Shown here: positions 2,828 through 20,207 of the stretch, piece by piece
How positions within the stretch are numbered: position 1 is the stretch's first letter
Layout: every line of letters begins with the position of its first letter
Source of the DNA: an uncultured Gemmatimonadales bacterium
GTDB taxonomy: Bacteria; Gemmatimonadota; Gemmatimonadetes; Gemmatimonadales; GWC2-71-9
Direction: 5' to 3'
NCBI GenBank assembly: GCA_963828735.1
Contig: CAWHFW010000007.1
Location: forward strand, 1-52,276
DNA length: 52,276 nt
Notes under the pieces: generated by a model
What the model was told of the DNA's origin: nothing
Database searches by the model: none
Seen by the model: the letters and a program-made list of their open reading frames with translations, nothing else
Position numbers and translations under genes: made by a program

Positions 2828-3765
2828 CCGGGCGCATCCGTCGTGGCCTCGACCAGGAACGGTGGGCGGCCCTTGCTGGCCAGGTAGACCCGTCCGAGGT
2901 ACTCGCCGATGAGGCCAAGCAGAATGAACTGCACGCCGAACAGGAGCGTCGTCACGCCGACCGCCGACGCCCAGCCCGGCACGGTCCGCCCCCGCTCGGC
3001 CTGGATCAGGACGTACCCCAGCTCGAGAAAAGCCAGACACGCGGTCGCGAGGCCGAGCCCGGTGCCGATGCGGAGCGGGGTGAGGGAGAAGGCGGTCACG
3101 CCCGACACGGCGAGCCGTACCATCTTGCGGAGGGAGTACTTGGTCTCGCCTGCATGGCGCGGCGCCGCGTCGAACGGCAGGGTGACGCTCCGGAGTCCGG
3201 TCCAGCCGATCAATCCCCGGAGGAAGTACTCCCCTTCCTGGAGCGCCAGCAGGTAGTCCACCACCTGGCGGCCCATCAGCCGGAACTCGCCGGTGCCGGC
3301 CGCCATCGGCACGCCCGTCAAGGTCGAGAACATCCGGTAGAACATCGCCGAGGTGGTGCGCTTGAACCGGCCGACATCCGCCGAGTCGGATCGGCGGGTC
3401 AGCACGAGCGGTGTTCCGGCCAGCCAGTGCCGCACCATGACCGGAATCAGCGCGGGGGGATGCTGCAGATCGGCGTCCATGGTCACCACCGCCTCGCCGC
3501 GCGCGTGCTTCAGCCCGGCCAGGATGGCCGCCTGCTGGCCAAAGCTGCGGGCCAAACGGACCCCGTGGACCCTCGGGTCACGTTGCGCGATCCGGCAGAT
3601 GGCCGACCAGGTGCCGTCGGTGCTGCCGTCATCCACCAGCACGAGCTGGTACTGCCACGGCTCCGAATGGAGCTGAAAGCGGATGGCGCGGTACAGCGGC
3701 TCGATGTTGGGCTCTTCGTTGTGACAGGGCGCGACGATGGAGACGAGAGGTGGGCGATCCGGCAT
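2755..3765 (-). CDS. Glycosyltransferase family 2, GtrB/ArnC-like polyprenol-phosphate glycosyltransferase
   Basis: VSIVAPCHNEE, VDDGSTD, RSFGQQAA, MDADLQHPP, two C-terminal TM helices, GLIGEYLGRVY. Confidence 0.9.
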   Translation of the reverse strand: MPDRPPLVSIVAPCHNEEPNIEPLYRAIRFQLHSEPWQYQLVLVDDGSTDGTWSAICRIAQRDPRVHGVRLARSFGQQAAILAGLKHARGEAVVTMDADLQHPPALIPVMVRHWLAGTPLVLTRRSDSADVGRFKRTTSAMFYRMFSTLTGVPMAAGTGEFRLMGRQVVDYLLALQEGEYFLRGLIGWTGLRSVTLPFDAAPRHAGETKYSLRKMVRLAVSGVTAFSLTPLRIGTGLGLATACLAFLELGYVLIQAERGRTVPGWASAVGVTTLLFGVQFILLGLIGEYLGRVYLASKGRPPFLVEATTDAPGQFRSVSSERRRSQWEGRRRPMSP

Positions 3766-3887
3766 CACTCGCGCCTTTTGGCCAGGGAGCCTTCAGAGCG
3801 GTCCGACGAGGGTTCTTGCAGGATATGGGCCCCGACGCCAACCGATCGCCATTCCCTCACCTGCGGGTGGCCGTGTATCGTCACCCA

Positions 3888-5202
3888 ATGCACCAAGCCC
3901 CGACGCCCGACGTCTCCGCGATCCAGCGCCGCACGGTCCGCCTGCTGTTCTTCACCCAGGCCATCGCCGGTGTCGGCATCGCCGTCGGCGGGTCGGTCGG
4001 CGCGCTGCTGGCGGCGGATATCGCCGGGGTGGGACTGTCGGGCGCCGCCCAGAGCGCCAACGTCGTGGGCGCCGCCCTCTTCGCCGTGCCGGCTGCGGCC
4101 ATCGTGGAGCGCCGCGGCCGCCGGCCCAGCCTCGCGGCCGGTTATGCCCTGGCGGCAGTGGGGGCGCTGCTCGTGGTCGTCGCCGCGGCGCGCGACTCGG
4201 TGCCGGTCCTGTTTGCCGGCCTCTTCCTCTTCGGCGGCGCCAGCGCCGCGGGATACCAGGCGCGCTACGCCGCGGTGGACCTCGCCACCGACGCGCTCCG
4301 CGGGCGGCATCTCTCGCTGGTCGTCTGGGCGACGACGCTGGGTGCGGTCGTCGGTCCGAGCCTCGCGGCGCCCGCGGGCGAGGCGCTCAACCACTTCGGG
4401 GTGCCCATGCTGGCCGGCCCGTTCTTCTTCTCCGCCCTGCTGTTCCTGCTCTCGACCGTGGTGCTGCTCCTGCTTCTCGAGGCCGGACCCCGCCGTGGTG
4501 GCGCGAGCCATGGTCGAGGCGCCGCTCGCGGCAGGCGGCGGGGTGGGCGCGGCGCTGCCGGTCGTCCTGTCACGGCCCTCGGCCCGGCTGGGTGTCGCTG
4601 CCATGGCGGCCGGGCATGTGGTGATGGTCGGGGTGATGACCATGACCCCGGTGCACATCCGGAGCGCGGGGCACGACGCGGCGCACACGCTGCGGCTGGT
4701 AGGGCTGGTCCTGAGCGCGCACATCGCGGGGATGTTCGCCTTCGCGCCGGTGTTCGGCTGGCTGACCGACCGGATCGGCCGGCGGCCGGTGGTCGGCATC
4801 GGGATCCTGCTCCTGCTCCTCGCGTGCGGGGTGGCGGGCACCGCCGGGCACGACCCGGCGCGGCTCGCCGCGGGGCTTACGCTGGTCGGGCTCGGCTGGT
4901 CGGCCGCGATGGTGGCCGGCTCCACGCTGCTGAGCGAGGGCGTGCCGGCCGAGCTGCGCGCGTCGGCGCAGGGACTGTCGGACCTCACGATGGGACTGGC
5001 GGGGGCGACGGCGGGGGCGCTGTCGGGCGTGGTGGTCGAGCATTGGGGATATCCGACGCTGACGCTACTCGCGGCGCTCGCCACGGCACCGCTCGTCGTG
5101 CTCCTGCTCGGCGGGATCGCCACGAATACCGCGCCGCCAGGCCCACCGCGTCGAGGCTCGCAGCCGGAGCCACAGGCGATCGGAGACTCGCAGGCCGCGT
5201 AG
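3888..5202 (+). CDS. MFS transporter; apparent frameshift near 4480
   Basis: N-half (ERRGRRPSL motif A) in ORF 3750 frame from ATG 3888; C-half (GWLTDRIGRRPV) in ORF 901 frame; about 12 TM helices when joined. Confidence 0.85.
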
Positions 5203-6155: not shown

Positions 6156-6337
6156 ACGGCTCGGCACGGTGCCCCGGCCGGTCACGAGCTTCGGCGCCTC
6201 CAGCGATCTTCGCCGAGCCACAGTGGTCACCCGCGAGTACCACGGGGACGCGTGGATGAGCCGGGTCGTCCGGCCGTAGCTTATCGAGGCGTCACCCCCA
6301 TCCTCACGCTTGGCTGACCCCGCTGATAGCTTCCGGC

Positions 6338-6955
6338 ATGAACGAACCGCACATGCCACCGCCCACCAGCCCCTTCGATGCCCTGGCCGGCGACTTCGCC
6401 GCCCTGGTGCGCCGGCACGACCCGGCTTGGACCGGCTTCAGCTCCCATGATCCCGGCGTGACGCTGCTCGAGATCGGGGCGTGGATCACGGAGCGACTCG
6501 GAGGGACGGCGGCTCGCAGCGACCCCTACCGCAACTTCAACTTCCGGGTCAAGCTCGACGGTAGCGTGGTGGCGGGGGTCAGCAAGGTGTCCGCGCTGCG
6601 CCGATCGACCGAGGTGGTGGATTACCGGGAAGGCGGCGCACCAGACTTGGTAGAGCGCATCCCTGGGAGTCTGGTCTACTCGCCCTTCCTCCTGGAGCGC
6701 CCGCTCGGTGCGGACACCACCTTCGAAGACTGGGCGGACCTGGTGCGCGATCGGGCGGCCGGTTCCGCGGCCGCGGCCGGTTACCGGAAGAACGTTCGGA
6801 TCGAAATCCTGGACGAAGCCGGGCGGCTCTCCCTTGCCTACGACGTGCCGGGATGCTGGCCCATCGCGTACCGCGTGCTGCCCGACCTCACCGAAAGCCT
6901 GACGCTGCTGCCGGAAGCGTGGCAGCGCGACCGCAGTGTGAAGCCAGGGAGCTGA
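6338..6955 (+). CDS. Phage/eCIS tail-tube (T4 gp19-like) protein fused to a baseplate-J-like N-terminal segment
   Basis: DPYRNFNFRVKLDG-VAGVSKVSALRRSTEVVDYREGG, LER, FEDWA, RKNVRIEILDEAG, CWP match eCIS tube proteins; PAWTGFSSHDPGVTLLEIGAWITE matches the baseplate WTDxNxSDPGxTLLE motif. Confidence 0.85.
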   Translation: MNEPHMPPPTSPFDALAGDFAALVRRHDPAWTGFSSHDPGVTLLEIGAWITERLGGTAARSDPYRNFNFRVKLDGSVVAGVSKVSALRRSTEVVDYREGGAPDLVERIPGSLVYSPFLLERPLGADTTFEDWADLVRDRAAGSAAAAGYRKNVRIEILDEAGRLSLAYDVPGCWPIAYRVLPDLTESLTLLPEAWQRDRSVKPGS

Positions 6956-7216: not shown

Positions 7217-8761
7217 ATGCAACTCCGCGTAGATGTCAACCTGCACACCCTGCACTGCATCACGCCCACCGATCCATCCGGCGAGGACGAGCCGTACATG
7301 TGGGTCTACTACATAAGGATGGACGGCGACACCGTCCGACAGAGTACTGTGACTCCAACGCGGCTCTCCGCGGCCGTGGAGGTGTCGAGCGGGCCAGGCC
7401 GGCCGGGGAACCTCCTCGTGGACGAGGTAGGTAGCGGGGCGAACATCCGCATCCCCACCGATGTGGGTGCGCACTCCGCCCAACTGCGTCCCATCGTGCT
7501 GCAGCTGACAGTCGGCGGGACCGAGCGCCGTTTGTTCCTGCCTGGCGTCCTCTTCGTCGCAGCGGTGCTGATCGACGAGGAGTCGGTACCGCGGGACGCC
7601 ATGGAGGGCGCGCACGAAGACGTGCGCCTGCTTCTCAAGCAGCGGCTGGACGACTTCTTCAACGCGCTCGACCTCCAGCCGCTCATACAGCAGGCGATTG
7701 CGGCCGGTGACATCGCACCGGCCATGCAGGCATTGCTCGCGCAGCTCACGGCGTTCATCGGCAATCAGAACAGCGGCCTTGTGAAGGAGGCGATCGACGC
7801 CGCCATCCAGTCAGCCATGATCTCCGTCATGTCGAGCTGGAACCCGATCGAGCACGTCGCCTCCGCTCTCGACCCCGACGAACCGGTCGGTACCGCGACG
7901 CTGATGGTACGAGAGGATGCCTTCATTGCCGCGAACCTGACCCAGGACGGTACCCAGGATGTCCGACAGTCCCGGACGGGGCTCGGGGGCGCGTGGTACG
8001 TCGTCAACGGCGGCGCCGGAGGCGAGCTGGCCTTCACCCAGGCCGACGCCGTAATCCGCATGCAGGCGCAGCCTCCGGTGGAGGCCGACAACGGCACGCA
8101 TGTCTTCCACACCGGGAAGCTCTGCATCGCGGAGGGCACGAGCGTCACATGGGTCCGGATGAACCACACGCTCACCTATGACGTGTCGATCGAGTATCCC
8201 TTCGCCGCTTTCGAGTTCCTGCTCGATGGCCAGCTCCTGGCGGCGAATCAAGGCGTCGCGCGGATCTCGAAGGAGGTCTCGCTACCGGAGTTCGACCCCG
8301 ACACGTACAAGTTCATGCGCTGGCGACAGGAGACGCGCACCGTCGAGGTGACGTTCGCGCGCACGGCCGACCCCGGGGCCCCGCAGATTCAGCATCTCAG
8401 GTTGACCAACGCACCGGCGGACGGCAGCTACTGGCTCGACCTCCGGATCAACGCCGTGCTGAATGACGGGCGCCGCTTCTTTGCCGGACAGCATGTGATC
8501 GACTTCGAGGGCAAGACGCTGCACCTGCCCGACGATTTCACGAAGGGGGTCGAGCAGTGTCTCGAGCCGTTGACCAGTAACCGCTTCTCCAAGTCGGTGA
8601 AGGTCGGGCCCAAGGAGCTCTGGGGGCCGTTCGGGCGGCAGCAGCGTTACGAGCAGGTGGCTCAGGCGGTACAGGCGATGGCGGCCGTTCGAGGTCAGGA
8701 TGTGGCGGCCACTGAGGCCGTCATCCGGGCAGTCGCGGCCAGACTCAAGCTGCAACGGTAG
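7217..8761 (+). CDS. Hypothetical protein (~514 aa), no signal peptide
   Basis: Long ORF with GAGGAGG RBS before ATG 7217; N-terminal LHCITPTDPSGEDEPYMWV; closely followed by the next gene. Confidence 0.8.
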   Translation: MQLRVDVNLHTLHCITPTDPSGEDEPYMWVYYIRMDGDTVRQSTVTPTRLSAAVEVSSGPGRPGNLLVDEVGSGANIRIPTDVGAHSAQLRPIVLQLTVGGTERRLFLPGVLFVAAVLIDEESVPRDAMEGAHEDVRLLLKQRLDDFFNALDLQPLIQQAIAAGDIAPAMQALLAQLTAFIGNQNSGLVKEAIDAAIQSAMISVMSSWNPIEHVASALDPDEPVGTATLMVREDAFIAANLTQDGTQDVRQSRTGLGGAWYVVNGGAGGELAFTQADAVIRMQAQPPVEADNGTHVFHTGKLCIAEGTSVTWVRMNHTLTYDVSIEYPFAAFEFLLDGQLLAANQGVARISKEVSLPEFDPDTYKFMRWRQETRTVEVTFARTADPGAPQIQHLRLTNAPADGSYWLDLRINAVLNDGRRFFAGQHVIDFEGKTLHLPDDFTKGVEQCLEPLTSNRFSKSVKVGPKELWGPFGRQQRYEQVAQAVQAMAAVRGQDVAATEAVIRAVAARLKLQR

Positions 8762-8772
8762 CGGAGGTGCCT

Positions 8773-11700
8773 ATGCTGCAACGCACGATTCCAATTGGAC
8801 ACGCGCTCGCCCCCGAAAGCCTCACCTTCGAGGAGCCGGGGAATGCAGTCTGGGCCGCCACCGTGCGGGGCGGGCTGGTAACCGTACGCCTGCTGGATGG
8901 CGCCGTGTCGCAGCTCGGCGGTGGGTACCGCCACCCGGTCGGCGTAGTCCCAATGCACGATGGGCTGACCGTCGCGATCGTCGAGCGAACCGGCCGGATC
9001 TGGGTGGCCCGCCGCGACCAGGCCGCGCGCAGTCGAGCACAGCAGACTGCCGATCTCCCCGGCCGCGTGCTGGCGGCACGCCGTCACCCGGACGCGGGCA
9101 GGCTGCTGGTCCTCACCACGCGTCGCGAGCGCGGCGGCGACGCAGACCCGACGATCTTCGCCGTGAGCCTGGCCGACGGGACGGTGGCGGAGGTTGCGAG
9201 CGGTCTCACTCAGGCGCGCACGTTTGTGTCCGACGACAGTCGGCGCCAGCTCATCGTGCTCGCGGTGACCCCGTCCGGCGTCCGGAAGCTGTCGATCGTC
9301 GCGATCGACGGCGCATCCGTGACACAGGTCCCCGGCAGCGTCGGCAACTTCGAGACGATCGTGCTCGCGCCCGATGCGAGCACACCCGGCGTGATCGGTG
9401 CCTCCGCCGATGCGACGTCGCAAGGCAAACTCGAGCTGATTCGCCTCGACGGCACGCCCGGCCCAACCATGAATCCTGCCCTCCCGATCGTGAGCATGAC
9501 CAGGTGGGGATCACTCCTGCTCCTCGCCTCGGGGACGGACCTCGTCGCGCTCGAGTGGGACCTGGATGGAGGAACGCTTTCGATCGATGCGCCGCTCGGG
9601 CCGCTGTACGTCAACGGCTATGCACGGCTCGCCGTTGCGCTCGCGCCCACCGGGCTCGCGCTCACCGACGTCGAGTTCCTGGTCCGCGAGGGTCCTGAGG
9701 CGGGCTTGGTCTCCGCCGCGGTCGAGCCCCCAGCGCCCGACGGCGCCCGGTCCGTCATGCTCCTCGCCGGGTTCCGCACTGGGGAGTACCACCTGGAGGC
9801 GCGGCGCCGAGCGGACGGGTCCGTCCTCGCCACGCGGCGGTTCCGTGTGACCGCCAGCTGGCCGGATGCTGTCGTCGGGCCGCCGGTCGCGACGATTGGC
9901 CCACGACAGACCATGCGCCTCATGAGCTGGGGTGGTGCCGGGGCAGGGTCCGTTTACATCAAGCCGGCGCCCGAGACGATCCGCGTCGCCGTCGTCCTCG
10001 TTTCGACGAACAGCCGGCGGTGGGGCGCGCTCGAGGTCGGGGCGAAGAGCGCCTGGCGGGATCGGCTGATCGGACCGGGCGACTCGGTAAGGCGCTACTA
10101 TGAGGAAGTCTCCTACCGCGGGACGGCGGGTCCAGTGGGGAGCTCACCCGGCACAACCGTTCAGCTGCTCGGCGATAGGATTCTCGGTCCCGTGGATCTC
10201 CAAGAAGGCTGGGGCGACGTCTTCGAGCCGAAGAAGGGCGGCGGTGTGAACGGCGGGTGGATGTCGACGGCGACGGGCAAGCAGCTTCTGGCCAACGCCA
10301 TCAGCGCCTGGCTGGCCGACCAGCCTGACGGCACGCAGATCCTGGAGCTGGCGGATGCGATCGTCACCGTCGTGCGCTCCGCTTCGGACGCGCCGATCTC
10401 CATGCCTCCTCTCACGCCTATCCCGACGCTCTATGTATGGGGCCACGCCTCGCACATCGACTTCTGGCGCAAGACGGCCACGACGTTCACCCAGGGCCCG
10501 AAGGCGATCACCCTGGTGACCGACGCGTACCCGGCCGCACTCCCGGTCGCACCGATTCTCGAGCACACCGTCTGTCACGAGCTGGGTCACAACATCGGTC
10601 TTGACGACCTGTACGACGCGCACGGAGACTACCCAGCCGAGGTGAACGCGCGCACCCCCGACAACGCAGACCTCATGGCCAGCAGCCGTCCCCTCCCCCA
10701 CTTCTCGATCGCCAACCGAATGCGCCTCGGCTGGGTTCAGGCGGCGTGGCTGCGCCGCTTCGACTTCGCGGCCAGCCCCACAGGGGGGACCGTCACGTTG
10801 CACGCAGCCGAGCGGCTCACCCGCGCCGGGCCGCCGGCCGGCCGTTTCGCGGGAATCGAGGTGCCACTCCAGGACGGCTGGAGCTATTTCTTCGAGCTCC
10901 GCCGGACCCAGGCCGGTCAGATCGGTGATCAGCTGCTGAACAGCCTCAGCGCCAGCCAGCCCTTCGTGCTCGGTACGGATCTCCGGGTCGGTGGCGGCGA
11001 ACCGGCTCGACCACCGATCCTGAGCCTGCCCACCGACGCCGATGGCGATGGCCCGGTGCTCGACACCGCCGGCGAGGATTACAAGGAAAGCGATGTCACC
11101 AACCCGGCGGTCATGCACGACTTCACGCTGCGGGTGCAGTCGCTGGCTATACCGGACGCCGACAGCGCGGTGGTGCAGGTGGACTACATCGGGGCGCATC
11201 GACCACAGCTGCAGATCCGGCCCGCACCGGGGAAAGGCAATTTCAAGAGCCCGGATATCGACGTCGTCGGGACGTTCGGCGCGGTGCTGCCCTGGGTGGT
11301 GAAGGGTGCACCGAACGCCATCCGGATAACCGTTCACAACCTGGGGACACTCGCGGCCACCCAGGTACAGATTCACGTTCGCTGGCTGCCGTTCACGGTT
11401 TCAGCCGGACCGTGGCAGTCGCTCACGGATCCCGCACCGTTCGACGTCCCCGCCCTCGGCCTCACCAGCCTCGTCGTGCCCTGGAACGTGCCGGCCTCGG
11501 TCAAAGTAGGCGATGTGGAGGCAAACCACTTCTGCGTGCGGGTGGAGATCGATCGGTTCCGAGATGCGGCGCATCCCGAACGGGAGGAGATCGTCGTCGC
11601 CGACAACTGGGCCCAATCCAACTTCGATGCCGTCTCGGTTCCCTTCGGCTCGCCGTCCGACCGGATCCGGACAGCGGCCACCCTGAGCAACCCGCTCGGC

Positions 11701-12294
11701 CGCGAGGCGACCTACCTGCTCACGACCGACCAGTCCGGGGACGGCTTTCGGGTGTACGTGGGACACGCCTGGCTTCGCCTGGCGCCCGGCGAGACTCGTC
11801 CCGTCGAGCTGACGTACGAGAGCCTGGCAGGCGATCCATCATTCGGGGCGGCGTTCGAGCGCAGTCTCGAGCGCTACGCTGCTCGCGCGAACCACGTTGC
11901 GGTGACTTCGTGGCTGGTTCCCGAAGGGACGGAGTGCGACACCCCCCGCGAGTGGTGGGGCGTGTCGCTGGACCTGCGGGCCGGGCGGAGAGCATGGATC
12001 GATGACGTGCGCCGCAACGGCGAGCTCGTCACGGGCCGGGTGCGCGCGACCCGCAACGGCTCGATCACTAGCGTGACGTACGGGGACGTACATCTCGCCG
12101 TTTGGGACAGGGAGCACGCCGGACCGGCAACCGTCACTCAGGGCTCCATTCAGCCGGACGGGACGGCGCGAGTTCTCCTGAGCAACGAGAGCCTGCACGC
12201 CATCTCGACCGGCGCGCAGATCGTCGGGATGCTGGCGCGTCCGGCGGACGCCGAGTTTGCGGCGGCAGCCTCCAAGCTCACGCCTCTGGTGTGA
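8773..12294 (+). CDS. Large M6-like (immune inhibitor A-type) zinc metalloprotease with N-terminal propeller-like and C-terminal CARDB/Ig-like regions
   Basis: SVRRYYEEVSY, HELGHNIGLDDLY, DLMA Met-turn, RMRLGWV; ITVHNLG...HFCVRVEI...DNWAQSN; GGAGG RBS before ATG 8773. Confidence 0.8.
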   Translation: MLQRTIPIGHALAPESLTFEEPGNAVWAATVRGGLVTVRLLDGAVSQLGGGYRHPVGVVPMHDGLTVAIVERTGRIWVARRDQAARSRAQQTADLPGRVLAARRHPDAGRLLVLTTRRERGGDADPTIFAVSLADGTVAEVASGLTQARTFVSDDSRRQLIVLAVTPSGVRKLSIVAIDGASVTQVPGSVGNFETIVLAPDASTPGVIGASADATSQGKLELIRLDGTPGPTMNPALPIVSMTRWGSLLLLASGTDLVALEWDLDGGTLSIDAPLGPLYVNGYARLAVALAPTGLALTDVEFLVREGPEAGLVSAAVEPPAPDGARSVMLLAGFRTGEYHLEARRRADGSVLATRRFRVTASWPDAVVGPPVATIGPRQTMRLMSWGGAGAGSVYIKPAPETIRVAVVLVSTNSRRWGALEVGAKSAWRDRLIGPGDSVRRYYEEVSYRGTAGPVGSSPGTTVQLLGDRILGPVDLQEGWGDVFEPKKGGGVNGGWMSTATGKQLLANAISAWLADQPDGTQILELADAIVTVVRSASDAPISMPPLTPIPTLYVWGHASHIDFWRKTATTFTQGPKAITLVTDAYPAALPVAPILEHTVCHELGHNIGLDDLYDAHGDYPAEVNARTPDNADLMASSRPLPHFSIANRMRLGWVQAAWLRRFDFAASPTGGTVTLHAAERLTRAGPPAGRFAGIEVPLQDGWSYFFELRRTQAGQIGDQLLNSLSASQPFVLGTDLRVGGGEPARPPILSLPTDADGDGPVLDTAGEDYKESDVTNPAVMHDFTLRVQSLAIPDADSAVVQVDYIGAHRPQLQIRPAPGKGNFKSPDIDVVGTFGAVLPWVVKGAPNAIRITVHNLGTLAATQVQIHVRWLPFTVSAGPWQSLTDPAPFDVPALGLTSLVVPWNVPASVKVGDVEANHFCVRVEIDRFRDAAHPEREEIVVADNWAQSNFDAVSVPFGSPSDRIRTAATLSNPLGREATYLLTTDQSGDGFRVYVGHAWLRLAPGETRPVELTYESLAGDPSFGAAFERSLERYAARANHVAVTSWLVPEGTECDTPREWWGVSLDLRAGRRAWIDDVRRNGELVTGRVRATRNGSITSVTYGDVHLAVWDREHAGPATVTQGSIQPDGTARVLLSNESLHAISTGAQIVGMLARPADAEFAAAASKLTPLV

Positions 12295-16723: not shown

Positions 16724-16972
16724 CTGCGCGCACCGTGGTTCGAGATCGTGGGACCGGTGCGTGGCCCACAGACCATCGCGACGTCGGATCGCATTCGCGA
16801 GCTTCCGCGCCTGCTCAAGCAGTACGGACGCGGGCGGTGGCGAAAGCGGAAGGGATTTGCGACGGTGCGCCTGGTCGATGGTACGGTGCGACAGGCGGAG
16901 ATACATTGGTACGAAGCGACCGGTGTCGGCCGGAAGGAACTCAAAATCAAGCGCTACCTGGATCTGCCATGA
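16724..16972 (+). CDS. Small basic hypothetical protein (putative toxin); start uncertain (CTG 16724 or GTG 16748)
   Basis: WFEIVG...IRELPRLLKQYGRGRWRKRKG...AEIHWYEATGVGRKELKIK; ATGA overlap with next gene. Confidence 0.75.
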   Translation: MRAPWFEIVGPVRGPQTIATSDRIRELPRLLKQYGRGRWRKRKGFATVRLVDGTVRQAEIHWYEATGVGRKELKIKRYLDLP

Positions 16973-17253
16973 GCCGGAAAGCCGGATTCGTCCTCTGCAT
17001 CGACACCGGGGAATACCCCACCTCCCTGCAGCACCGGAAATTGTACGAGGTGCGCCCTGACGCGGACGCCGAAGCGCACGGCCAGCTGAGGATCGTGGAT
17101 GACTCCGGAGAGGACTACCTCTATCCCCGAGATTACTTTCAGCCCCTCGTGCTGACGCCGTTCCTGAGCCGGCTGCTTCGCGGCGCAGGCAAACAAGCGA
17201 GTAAGGGCCTTCGCCCGGTCCGCCGACCCGCCAAGCTTCGAACCCGGCGCTAG
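16969..17253 (+). CDS. Small hypothetical protein (putative antitoxin/partner)
   Basis: FVLCID..YPTSL..RKLYEV.PD.DA..HGQLRIVDDSGEDYLYP; translationally coupled to upstream gene. Confidence 0.75.
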   Translation: MSRKAGFVLCIDTGEYPTSLQHRKLYEVRPDADAEAHGQLRIVDDSGEDYLYPRDYFQPLVLTPFLSRLLRGAGKQASKGLRPVRRPAKLRTRR

Positions 17254-17256
17254 CGG

Positions 17257-17448
17257 CCCATCGGTGCAGGTGCCGGCGCGCGCCGCCTTCCCGGATGCTC
17301 GCGGCGCGGGGGCGACGGGATGGCTCCCGCAGGGCGCGTCAGTAGACGCCACTACCTCAACCGCTAGTAGCAGCCCCTCGCATGCGTGGCGGCTACTGCA
17401 GCGCCCGAAGGGAGCTAGCCCGGCGCACCCGCGCCGGTGCGCACCGGA
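17257..17448 (+). repeat. Dual-hairpin element copy 2 (H1 deleted)
   Basis: Head joined directly to the central linker at GGCGCGCG; intact H2. Confidence 0.95.
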
Positions 17449-17529
17449 GTCCCGCGGTCCACTGCCGTCCCGCCTAGCTAAACCGCGCACCCTCGGGCAT
17501 CTTCCGTCGTCTCCCAACACATAGGCCCC

Positions 17530-20207
17530 ATGCCCGAACTGCTCGGCCGCCTCCAAGCGGCCCTGGTGGACCGCTACCGTCTGGAGCGCGAGATCGGCGC
17601 CGGCGGAATGGCCACCGTCTACTTGGCCCAGGACGTTCGCCATGCCCGGCGAGTTGCCCTCAAGGTGCTTCGGCCCGAGCTTGCCGCCGTGATCGGCGCC
17701 GAGCGGTTCCTGGCCGAGATTCAGCTCACGGCCAACCTGCAGCATCCGCACATCCTGCCGCTGTTCGATTCGGGCGAGGCCGACGGGTACCTGTTCTACG
17801 TCATGCCCTTCGTCGAGGGCGAGACGCTGCGCGACCGGCTCACCCGCGAGAAGCAGCTCGCCGTGCCGGACGCCATCCGCATCGCCGAGGAAGTGGCTGG
17901 CGCGCTCGACTATGCGCATCGTCACGGCGTGGTGCACCGCGACATCAAGCCCGAGAACATCCTGCTGCACGACGGCTCGGCCCTCGTGGCCGACTTCGGC
18001 ATCGCGCTCGCCGCCAGCAAGGCCGGCGGCGCCCGGATGACCGAGACCGGGATGTCGCTGGGGACGCCGCACTACATGTCGCCCGAGCAGGCGATGGGTG
18101 AACGGGAGATCACTGCCCGCTCCGACGTGTACGCGCTCGGCTGCGTGCTGTACGAGATGCTCACCGCCGAGCCGCCGTTCACCGGCGCCACGGCGCAGGC
18201 GGTGGTGGCGCGGGTGGTGACCGAGGCGCCGCGCCCGCTCCACCCCCAGCGCCACACCATTCCGCCGCACGTCGAAGCCGCCGTGCTCACGGCGCTCGAG
18301 AAGCTCCCCGCCGACCGCTTCGCCTCCGCCGCCGACTTCGCGGCGGCGCTCCGGAACAAGGGCTACGCGACGACGACGGCGGTGCCCGCGGCGGACGCGC
18401 CGGCGCGTGCGACACGACGTCGGCGGGACTCGAGGCTGGTGGCGGCGCTCGCGGTGGCCGGCCTCGCCACGGCCGCGGCGCTGTGGGGCTGGCTCCGCCC
18501 GGCTGCCGCGCGAGCCGCTGACGCAGTTCAGCGTCGCGCTGCGCAAGAGCGAGGAGCTACAGCCGCCGCCGACCAGCGGCGGCGGACGGATCGCGATCTC
18601 GCCCGACGGCCGCCAGATCGTGTTCGTGGGCCCGGGCCAGGGATCGAGCCAGCTCTGGCTCCGCCGGCTCGACCAGCTCACCTCCACGCCGATCGCGGGG
18701 ACCGAGGGCGGCTACAGCCCGTTCTTCTCGCCCGACGGCCGCCAGGTCGGGTTCATCAAGAACGGCAACACGCTGCGGATCGCGTCGCTCGACGGGACGC
18801 CGACGGTGACCCTGATCGACACCGCCAACACCACCAGCGCCGACTGGAGCAGCGACGGCTGGGTATACGTCGAGGGCGGCGCCGGCATCATCCGCGTACG
18901 GCCCACCGGCGGACCGGTCGAGCCCGTGTACGCGGTCTCGGCCGAGCGCCACGAGGTCGGCGCCGAATTCCTCAACGCGCTGCCGGACGGCGGCCTCTTG
19001 TTCCGGCTGCGCTACGGGGGCAAGGGCCAGAACGAGTTTCAGATCGGCGCGATGAAGGTGCCAAAGGGCCCCGTGAAGCTGCTGACCCGCGGGGTGTTCG
19101 CACGCTACGCGCCGACCGGCCACCTGATCGTGGTCACCGCCGAGGGAAAGCTGATCGCCTTCCGTTCGATGCGGCCAAGCTCGAGCTCACCGGCCCGCCG
19201 ATCGCGCTGCTGGAGGGCGTCGGGGTCCGGGCCGGCGGGTTCAGCGTGGACCTGGCCCTCTCGCAGAGCGGCACGCTGGTGTACACCACCGGCGGGGCCA
19301 TCGGGGCGCGGCGGGTGGCGTGGGTGACGCGTGAAGGAGGGGCCTCACCGGTGGACCCGGCTGGGACCCGCAGGGCACCATCGACGCCATCGCCCTGTCG
19401 CCCGACGAGAAGACGCTCGCGGTGGCGCTCTCGCGGAACGGGAAGTCGGACATCTGGGTCAAGGCGCTGCCCACCGGCCCGTTCTCCCGGATCACCTTCG
19501 GCGACACCGGCAGCGTTCGTCCGGTCTGGGCGCCCGACGGCCGGTCGCTGCTCTACATCTCGGACCGGGCAGGCTCGGGCGTGGGCCCCGTCTACGAGCA
19601 CCGGGCGGATGGCACCGGGAACGCCACCGTCGTGTTCCGCTCTTCCATGGACTGGGGGCAGATCGTGCCGTCGCGTGACCGGCGGTGGCTGATCCTCAGG
19701 AGCGCCCAGTTGACAGGCAACGCCGGAATCTTCGGAGTCCGCCAGGGCGATACGACCGCGACTCCGCTGGTGAGCTCCGCCGCCACCAACAACTTCCCGG
19801 CGCTGTCACCGGATGAGCGGTGGCTGGCCTACGCATCGGACGAGTCCGGCACCGTGGAGATCTACGTGCGGCCGTTTCCCGAGACCAGCTCGGCCAAGTG
19901 GCAGGTCTCCACCTCCGGCGGGAGCCAGCCGGTCTGGAGCAAGAGCGGCCGCCAGCTCTACTACCTGAACGGCAAGAACGAGCTGGTGGCGGCCGACATC
20001 CGGCCGGGCGCGACCTTCGCCGTGGGGGAGCAGCGGGTGCTGTTCTCGTTCGCGCCCTTCCTCCGGCTGGGGCCGATTCCGTCGTATGCCGTGACCGCGG
20101 ACGACCGCCGTTTCATGATGCTGCGGGAGGGCGAGTCGGCGCAGGAGAGCGAGCTGATCGTGGCGCAGCACTGGCTGGACGGGCTCAAGGGCAAGACCGC
20201 GCGATAG
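17530..20207 (+). CDS. Ser/Thr protein kinase-TM-TolB/PD40 propeller protein; apparent frameshifts near 18500, 19160 and 19360
   Basis: GAGGMATVY, HRDIKPEN, DFG, YMSPEQ; SPDG repeats spread over successive frames; collinear with the intact paralog at 24810-27506. Confidence 0.9.

Follow-up and report, generated by a model that had tools for sequence, protein, structure and literature searches.

An orphan gene of an uncultured Gemmatimonadales bacterium fuses an eCIS baseplate hairpin to a gp19-type tube domain

Results

A stand-alone gene in an uncultured Gemmatimonadales genome encodes a 205-aa protein that joins an eCIS baseplate hairpin to a gp19-type tube domain (ORF 6338-6955; Table 1). 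The gene lies in the window, as we call the whole 52,276-nucleotide stretch analysed, and is confirmed to be more than an assembly oddity. Its component domains were already known; judged from sequence, their fusion is what appears to be new. Our literature search, which covered article listings, found no description of a baseplate hairpin-tube fusion; individual cases might still be contained in the tables of eCIS surveys. By membership tests the gene fails to qualify as an eCIS or as a tube or baseplate equivalog.

Table 1. Features of the fusion gene (positions in the window)
Feature	Positions	Strand	Basis
Whole gene, hairpin fused to gp19-type tube (205 aa)	6338..6955	+	Profile matches, family alignment
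Baseplate domain I (core bundle)-like helix-loop-helix, residues 12-54	6371..6499	+	Profiles and predicted helices
Short variable linker in place of tube N-terminal arm, residues 55-61	6500..6520	+	Alignment, model
Tube beta-sandwich, residues 62-198	6521..6931	+	PF06841, fold match, three-copy model
Long beta2-beta3 hairpin, residues 89-114, length kept	6602..6679	+	Model, segment comparison
Degenerate alpha-loop, residues 138-149	6749..6784	+	Segment comparison
Shortened last hairpin, residues 181-187, 7 aa	6878..6898	+	Alignment, segment comparison

In the predicted model of the protein (mean pLDDT 80.3), helices span residues 12-27 and 39-53, and a disordered linker leads into the tube sandwich. 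The linker, with pLDDT <50 at residues 56-62, is longer in early-branching family members. Contigs from two other studies covered the junction without differences (X5 6295-6666 and X12 6191-6591), and together with the 65 homologue clusters described below they rule out an assembly artefact. A single 179-nt contig of an RNA library fell within the gene (6485-6663), with small shares elsewhere, and this provides no evidence of transcription. Scans for promoters and terminators found nothing, and repeat analysis revealed no element ends.

The N-terminal hairpin was assigned using sequence profiles; the fold comparison covered the tube part. Its motif, WTGFSSHDPGVTLLEIGAWITE, spans residues 31-52. 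Residues 15-54 matched the start of TIGR02243 (E 8e-5) at 21.4 bits against a cut-off of 155.8, covering only profile positions 9-48 of 659. The fusion thus carries the N-terminal domain I motif of Baseplate J/TIGR02243 and falls short of the cut-off for a full-length wedge protein. A profile of the fusion family (A1, 55 members chosen by us from 120 listed matches) was compared with solved wedge proteins, matching residues 10-55 of the S. coelicolor baseplate chain 9gtp_1K at E 8e-7, while Alg12 (E 0.008), Afp12 (0.05), SalCis12 (0.09) and Pvc12 (0.22) followed. Chain 9gtp_1K is probably Cis11, judging by its length and name; the S. coelicolor wedge comprises two Cis11 and one Cis12 (accessible text of PMC12237407). 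In the opposite direction, a profile of full-length baseplate N-termini had its sole match in the whole genome at ORF 6338-6955 (E 1.9e-14). The original prediction of a baseplate-derived N-terminus therefore stands with respect to wedge domain I, but the solved relatives are Afp12, Alg12, Pvc12 and Streptomyces Cis11 rather than the Afp11 that it named.

W31, D38, P39 and G40 were invariant in 55/55 family members, and mean column conservation was 0.79 at residues 28-40 compared with 0.34-0.35 in the N-terminal tail and alpha-loop. The fusion shares a Helix-WTxxxxxDPGxTLLE-helix motif with wedge domain I (Afp12/Alg12/Pvc12/SalCis12 and S. coelicolor Cis11; TIGR02243). However, wedge proteins have 600-1000 residues, of which the fusion keeps only ~45; the upstream DDRxF motif and the downstream helix of full wedge proteins are absent. 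Domain I builds the core bundle where the gp25-like Alg9 docks, according to the accessible parts of PMC8894135 and PMC13314943.

The remainder of the protein is a tube domain of the gp19 type found in eCIS, matching PF06841 at residues 65-185 (E 2.4e-23) and TIGR02241 (E 3e-23), so that the two-domain anatomy first read from the letters held up against profiles. Fold matches to eCIS tubes gave Z 13.3-13.6 and rmsd 2.5-3.1 over 126-132 aligned residues, and an ESM Atlas search returned gp19 clusters only. The NCBIfam equivalog cut-offs for CIS1 and CIS5 were not reached (42.5 of 220 and 65.2 of 260). With the inner tubes Cis1/Afp1/Pvc1/Alg1 the fusion shares its fold, the lateral beta2-beta5 interface and the beta2-beta3 hairpin. 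It differs in having the baseplate hairpin for an N-arm, a degenerate alpha-loop and a last hairpin 8 aa shorter, and in lacking an accompanying sheath, spike or cap gene. T6SS Hcp rings, which match the fusion fold at Z 10-12, illustrate that a tube fold can form rings without an N-loop; unlike Hcp, the fusion is of gp19/eCIS tube type in sequence, keeps the long beta2-beta3 hairpin and contains a baseplate module.

Segments of 61 fused copies were compared with those of 124 unfused tubes from the clade closest to them; identities were calculated on up to 70 rows in each group. The fused tubes have lost the N-arm, the alpha-loop and, in 53/61 copies, eight residues of the last hairpin. The beta2-beta3 hairpin was 26 aa in 57/61 fused copies, with an identity of 0.55 versus 0.68 in unfused tubes. 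Alpha-loop lengths were commonly 8, 10 and 14 aa versus 13 in unfused tubes, with mean identities of 0.30 and 0.61. Unfused tubes have a last hairpin of 15 aa; it measured 7 aa in 53/61 fused copies and 15 or 16 aa in the remaining 8, and seven of the 61 retained it in full. The loop after LPDL, which seemed shortened in the original prediction, has eight residues fewer. According to a review, the N-loop contacts the next ring at its beta2-beta3 loop, and sheath, N-loop and beta2-beta3 loop are bridged by the alpha-loop (PMC8718954, accessible text). The lost parts would accordingly lie on the receiving face, where topology would place the last hairpin.

The lateral ring interface, by comparison, is predicted to be intact, with residues 86-91 pairing with 174-180 in canonical fashion. 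A three-copy model scored 0.62 (runs 0.68, 0.62 and 0.15) versus 0.00 for the best control. The mark used was reached by 20/30 solved pairs and 1/23 single chains, counts which are only rough here; runs had contact agreement of at least 18% and pLDDT of at least 63, and a pass could stem from solved tubes that the predictor had memorised. The baseplate hairpin made no confident contacts in this model.

A tube tree of 60 rows (thinned, without rows of 125 aa or less and without four on long branches) placed 17/18 fused rows in one group (99/91) together with the unfused orphan tube L179. As L179 nests there, the hairpin is dispensable in the fused clade at that point. This group was sister to bacterial eCIS tubes (joint group 100/99), apart from viral tubes. 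Within it, members with long linkers and full loops branched first and loop-less members last, a stepwise loss. P0072 may represent a separate fusion event.

The W..DPG motif occurred within the first 70 residues of 65/120 homologue clusters among the matches listed, one being the window's own, so the architecture extends well beyond one assembly. Frames were intact across 40-99% identity with invariant motif residues. DNA was available for seven copies, and dN/dS was calculated by the Nei-Gojobori method. The two closest pairs yielded 0.146 (L091/L093) and 0.22 (G559/L094), L091 and L092 being identical. For the hairpin only, these pairs gave 0.20 and 0.225, the first value resting on just 3 synonymous and 2 non-synonymous changes. 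Six distant pairs ranged from 0.27-0.54 for the whole gene and 0.34-0.72 for the hairpin, values inflated because synonymous sites are near saturation. The fusion gene is under purifying selection.

Distribution was patchy and without shared neighbours. The whole fusion was present in 3/103 genomes of the genus (G533 included). A TIGR02243 match of any kind was seen in 13 of the 103, a sheath in 10 and gp19 in 20. Across all GTDB species genomes, two pattern scans added fusions only at L011 and L012 (2/2 and 2/26 loci), and no more turned up when 401 genomes of the class were searched. A search for longer fused forms gave 50 matches, 49 of them singletons and none with the hairpin motif; five that were examined were sheath/tube read-throughs or fusions. 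Plasmids contained tube-only matches and one match at 88% coverage (H3). Two other proteins, P0214 and P0217, are apparently in-frame sheath-tube fusions of ~700 aa.

The gene has no injection machine of its own in the source genome (G000; 4.78 Mb, 7 contigs, 97.5% complete). The single gp19 match and the single TIGR02243 match in this genome are both ORF 6338-6955, and no sheath, gp25, spike OB-fold, other baseplate gene, Cis13 or second tube was found. Nor were these parts found in the congeners G529 (87% complete) and G559 (90%), which also carry the fusion. The sheath family PF17482 was absent from all three genomes while controls were positive, and tblastn with sheaths of relatives was negative. 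When 214 query proteins from 16 loci were searched against G000 by tblastn, tail-related queries matched only the fusion gene or one stand-alone AAA protein. A search for the tube initiator PF19266 gave no match anywhere, controls included; tblastn with initiators was negative. The window proteins that were scanned included no sheath, spike, baseplate or eCIS ATPase, upholding the orphan status first noted, and the search for a full eCIS locus elsewhere in the genome came back empty.

The AAA protein (C5:1988613-1989761) is a 383-aa ATPase with a hydrophobic C-terminus and ~40% identity to eCIS ATPase domains. It was rejected as a sign of an own eCIS, its neighbours being unrelated. Within the window, the frame at 7217-8761 encodes 514 aa with no family match and adjoins that of a 1173-aa protein (8773-12294) which resembles M6 metalloproteases weakly (E 3.6e-5). 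Genes at 1263-2827, 3750-5202 and 16954-20207 (membrane glycosyltransferase-like, MFS transporter and kinase-propeller) look split between frames, possibly by assembly frameshifts.

Gene order further separated the fusion from eCIS tubes. A sheath end lay just upstream of 121/142 unfused tubes, and a sheath motif lay within 3 kb of 0/6 fused copies. The six fused loci had no conserved partner gene. None of the three fusion genomes contained a sheath; at 0/3, mutual exclusion of fusion and intact eCIS is expected by chance. In 14/14 intact loci showing both, the baseplate motif was downstream of the tube. Because of this order the fusion is not a simple deletion scar, and the arrangement of hairpin then tube therefore needs rearrangement.

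A hairpin search (65 matches) and a pattern scan revealed further short hairpin chimeras in Gemmatimonadota and Acidobacteriota, built solely from other tail assembly modules. Four matches (P0126, P0127, P0152 and P0174) were discarded as repeat noise. The hairpin was joined to a baseplate beta-domain in P0138, P0165, P0187 and others and in L261, and to a Cis13 N-domain, sometimes behind a sheath N-arm, in P0135, P0141, L249, L250, L251 and L268; L264 combined all three. In G146, hairpin, baseplate beta-domain and sheath were spread over two overlapping contig ends (L234:4438-4746 and L222:3-1514); this genome, 98% complete, had no gp19, gp25 or spike match. Where DNA was available, sister chimeras had unrelated neighbours. 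A sheath match occurred elsewhere in 3/5 Acidobacteriota genomes with sister chimeras, exceeding the cut-off in 2/5. The Acidobacteriota chimeras at L250 and L268 sit behind a Nal1-like protease gene. In a 43-column tree, 35 short or chimeric hairpins split from 44 baseplate hairpins in 2 changes (shuffled mean 26), and in a 64-column tree in 1 change. This separation is suggestive only, given few columns, a seeded search and possible convergent loss.

Other lone tail genes were also encountered. Tandem pairs of divergent gp19 domains occurred outside eCIS loci in proteins of ~260-395 aa (L368, L370-L374 and L377, in G299, G489, G514, G562, G560, G267 and G290), the G560 copy having a signal-peptide-like start. 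Mini-cassettes at L239, L241, L385 and L351 (G017, G185, G669 and G324) combined a tube and an initiator-like gene, some of them adding an isolated sheath C-terminal domain; in G324 a 115-aa sheath C-domain gene stood alone. In Gemmatimonadales, lone plain tubes and a lone whole sheath gene (L243, L244, L217, L182, L179, L180 and L350) sat among housekeeping or accessory genes.

Potential phage targets and defence context were surveyed. Uncultured viruses contained 52 tube loci, 13 with a baseplate motif within 10 kb, and the viral locus L300 carried portal, capsid, sheath and tape measure. Fused tubes were at most 36% identical to viral tubes versus 51% to bacterial eCIS tubes. Viral contigs contained no fused copy (one match to the DNA pattern fell where no gene was called), and cultured phages had neither a fused copy nor a close tube (2 records, 32%). 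In one lineage (L091-L093) the fusion lies beside TIR, TPR-S and caspase genes, and in G559 near WYL, HNH and helicase genes; its neighbours in the window and in G529 included no defence genes, and the L094 contig was too short to show any context. In L091-L093, the fusion begins where the gene of a 574-aa membrane protein without family ends, behind TPR-S/TIR and opposite the caspase gene. PADLOC 2.0.0 gave no match for the fusion protein.

Discussion

The reading we lean towards, tentatively, is that the fusion is a domesticated eCIS piece acting as a chain-terminating, dominant-negative decoy against incoming eCIS-type tails. A fusion subunit would join a growing foreign tube through its lateral interface. 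The missing parts probably formed the face receiving the next ring and the bridge to the sheath; with this face lost, the fusion could enter a foreign tube, yet permit no extension or sheathing. Meanwhile, the tethered hairpin would compete for a place in the wedge's three-part core bundle. Such a decoy would act on contractile tails built in the same cytoplasm, whether those of an eCIS-type myophage or those of an eCIS operon that the cell had recently gained. Blocking of tail assembly is a known defence, exemplified by Tai and Tab (PMC11364771 and PMC10884400, accessible text). The likeness would lie only in the proposed logic of a single small gene blocking tail assembly: as described there, Tai and Tab target the central tail fibre and tape measure, and we found no sequence match to the fusion. 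In favour of a decoy we count the selected family without a machine of its own, the stepwise loss of tube segments, sister chimeras made of tail modules, uncultured phages with both cognate parts, the defence-like neighbours at L091-L093 and G559, and the patchy distribution. Several observations count against a decoy, namely the seven copies with a full last hairpin, the lower conservation of the retained beta2-beta3 hairpin than of its unfused counterpart, purifying selection, L179 without its hairpin, the neighbours in the window and in G529, cultured phages without a close tube, the baseplate hairpin's lack of confident contacts in the model, and the negative PADLOC result. The identity to viral tubes also seems low for co-assembly. 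By extension, a derived hairpin might have been domesticated by soil bacteria and recombined with tube, sheath, baseplate and Cis13 modules into single-gene 'tail decoys' that would disrupt eCIS-type phage tails or incoming eCIS operons during assembly, a broader claim that we consider rather unlikely.

A close rival, and a real possibility, is that the protein forms a stand-alone Hcp-like ring or short tube with a cellular use away from tails, as carrier or scaffold, its hairpin serving as a docking or oligomerisation tag. The predicted lateral interface is consistent with such a ring, as are steady purifying selection and the decay of sheath- and stacking-related parts, expected after sheath loss. 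The genus has twice as many genomes with gp19 as with sheath, and among its orphans are plain tubes as well as proteins with two tube domains in tandem, one of which starts with a long signal-like stretch. A ring does not account, however, for the presence of the same hairpin at the head of sheath, baseplate and Cis13 fragments, and the six loci offer it no conserved partner. It is improbable that the gene is instead a relic of collapsed eCIS loci in slow decay without present function. eCIS loci in the genus are patchy and some appear broken, many other orphan fragments exist, and the distant-pair dN/dS values are higher; against this stand the intact frames with their invariant residues, close pairs that diverged after the fusion with dN/dS of 0.15-0.22, and a gene order that excludes simple deletion. 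The deletion scar entertained in the original prediction is disfavoured on the same grounds, the family being conserved and dN/dS well below 1. That prediction had also suggested an adaptor or tube initiator serving an eCIS at another site of this genome, which is very improbable. The best single fold match was the initiator Pvc5, tied with plain tubes, the CIS5 profile gave some score (65 vs 260), two Acidobacteriota genomes with sister chimeras had a sheath over the cut-off, and G529 and G559 are incomplete; however, no other part was found in G000, a nearly complete genome of 7 contigs, and sheaths were missing from the fusion genomes and from the surroundings of the fused loci. What survives of a proposed assembly modulator is thus the version with a foreign target, a phage tail or an incoming eCIS operon, and not one acting on an own eCIS.

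Lone tail-module chimeras under selection escape eCIS surveys because such surveys count complete clusters. As the fusion is a single 205-aa gene, the question is cheap to test either way. If it forms stand-alone rings, a phage tube fold would have been reused without sheath or spike. If it and its relatives are decoys, they would provide a ready tool for capping or controlling tube length in CIS studies, and the class would represent a categorically new form of defence, made from the target's own interfaces by structural mimicry of the tail.
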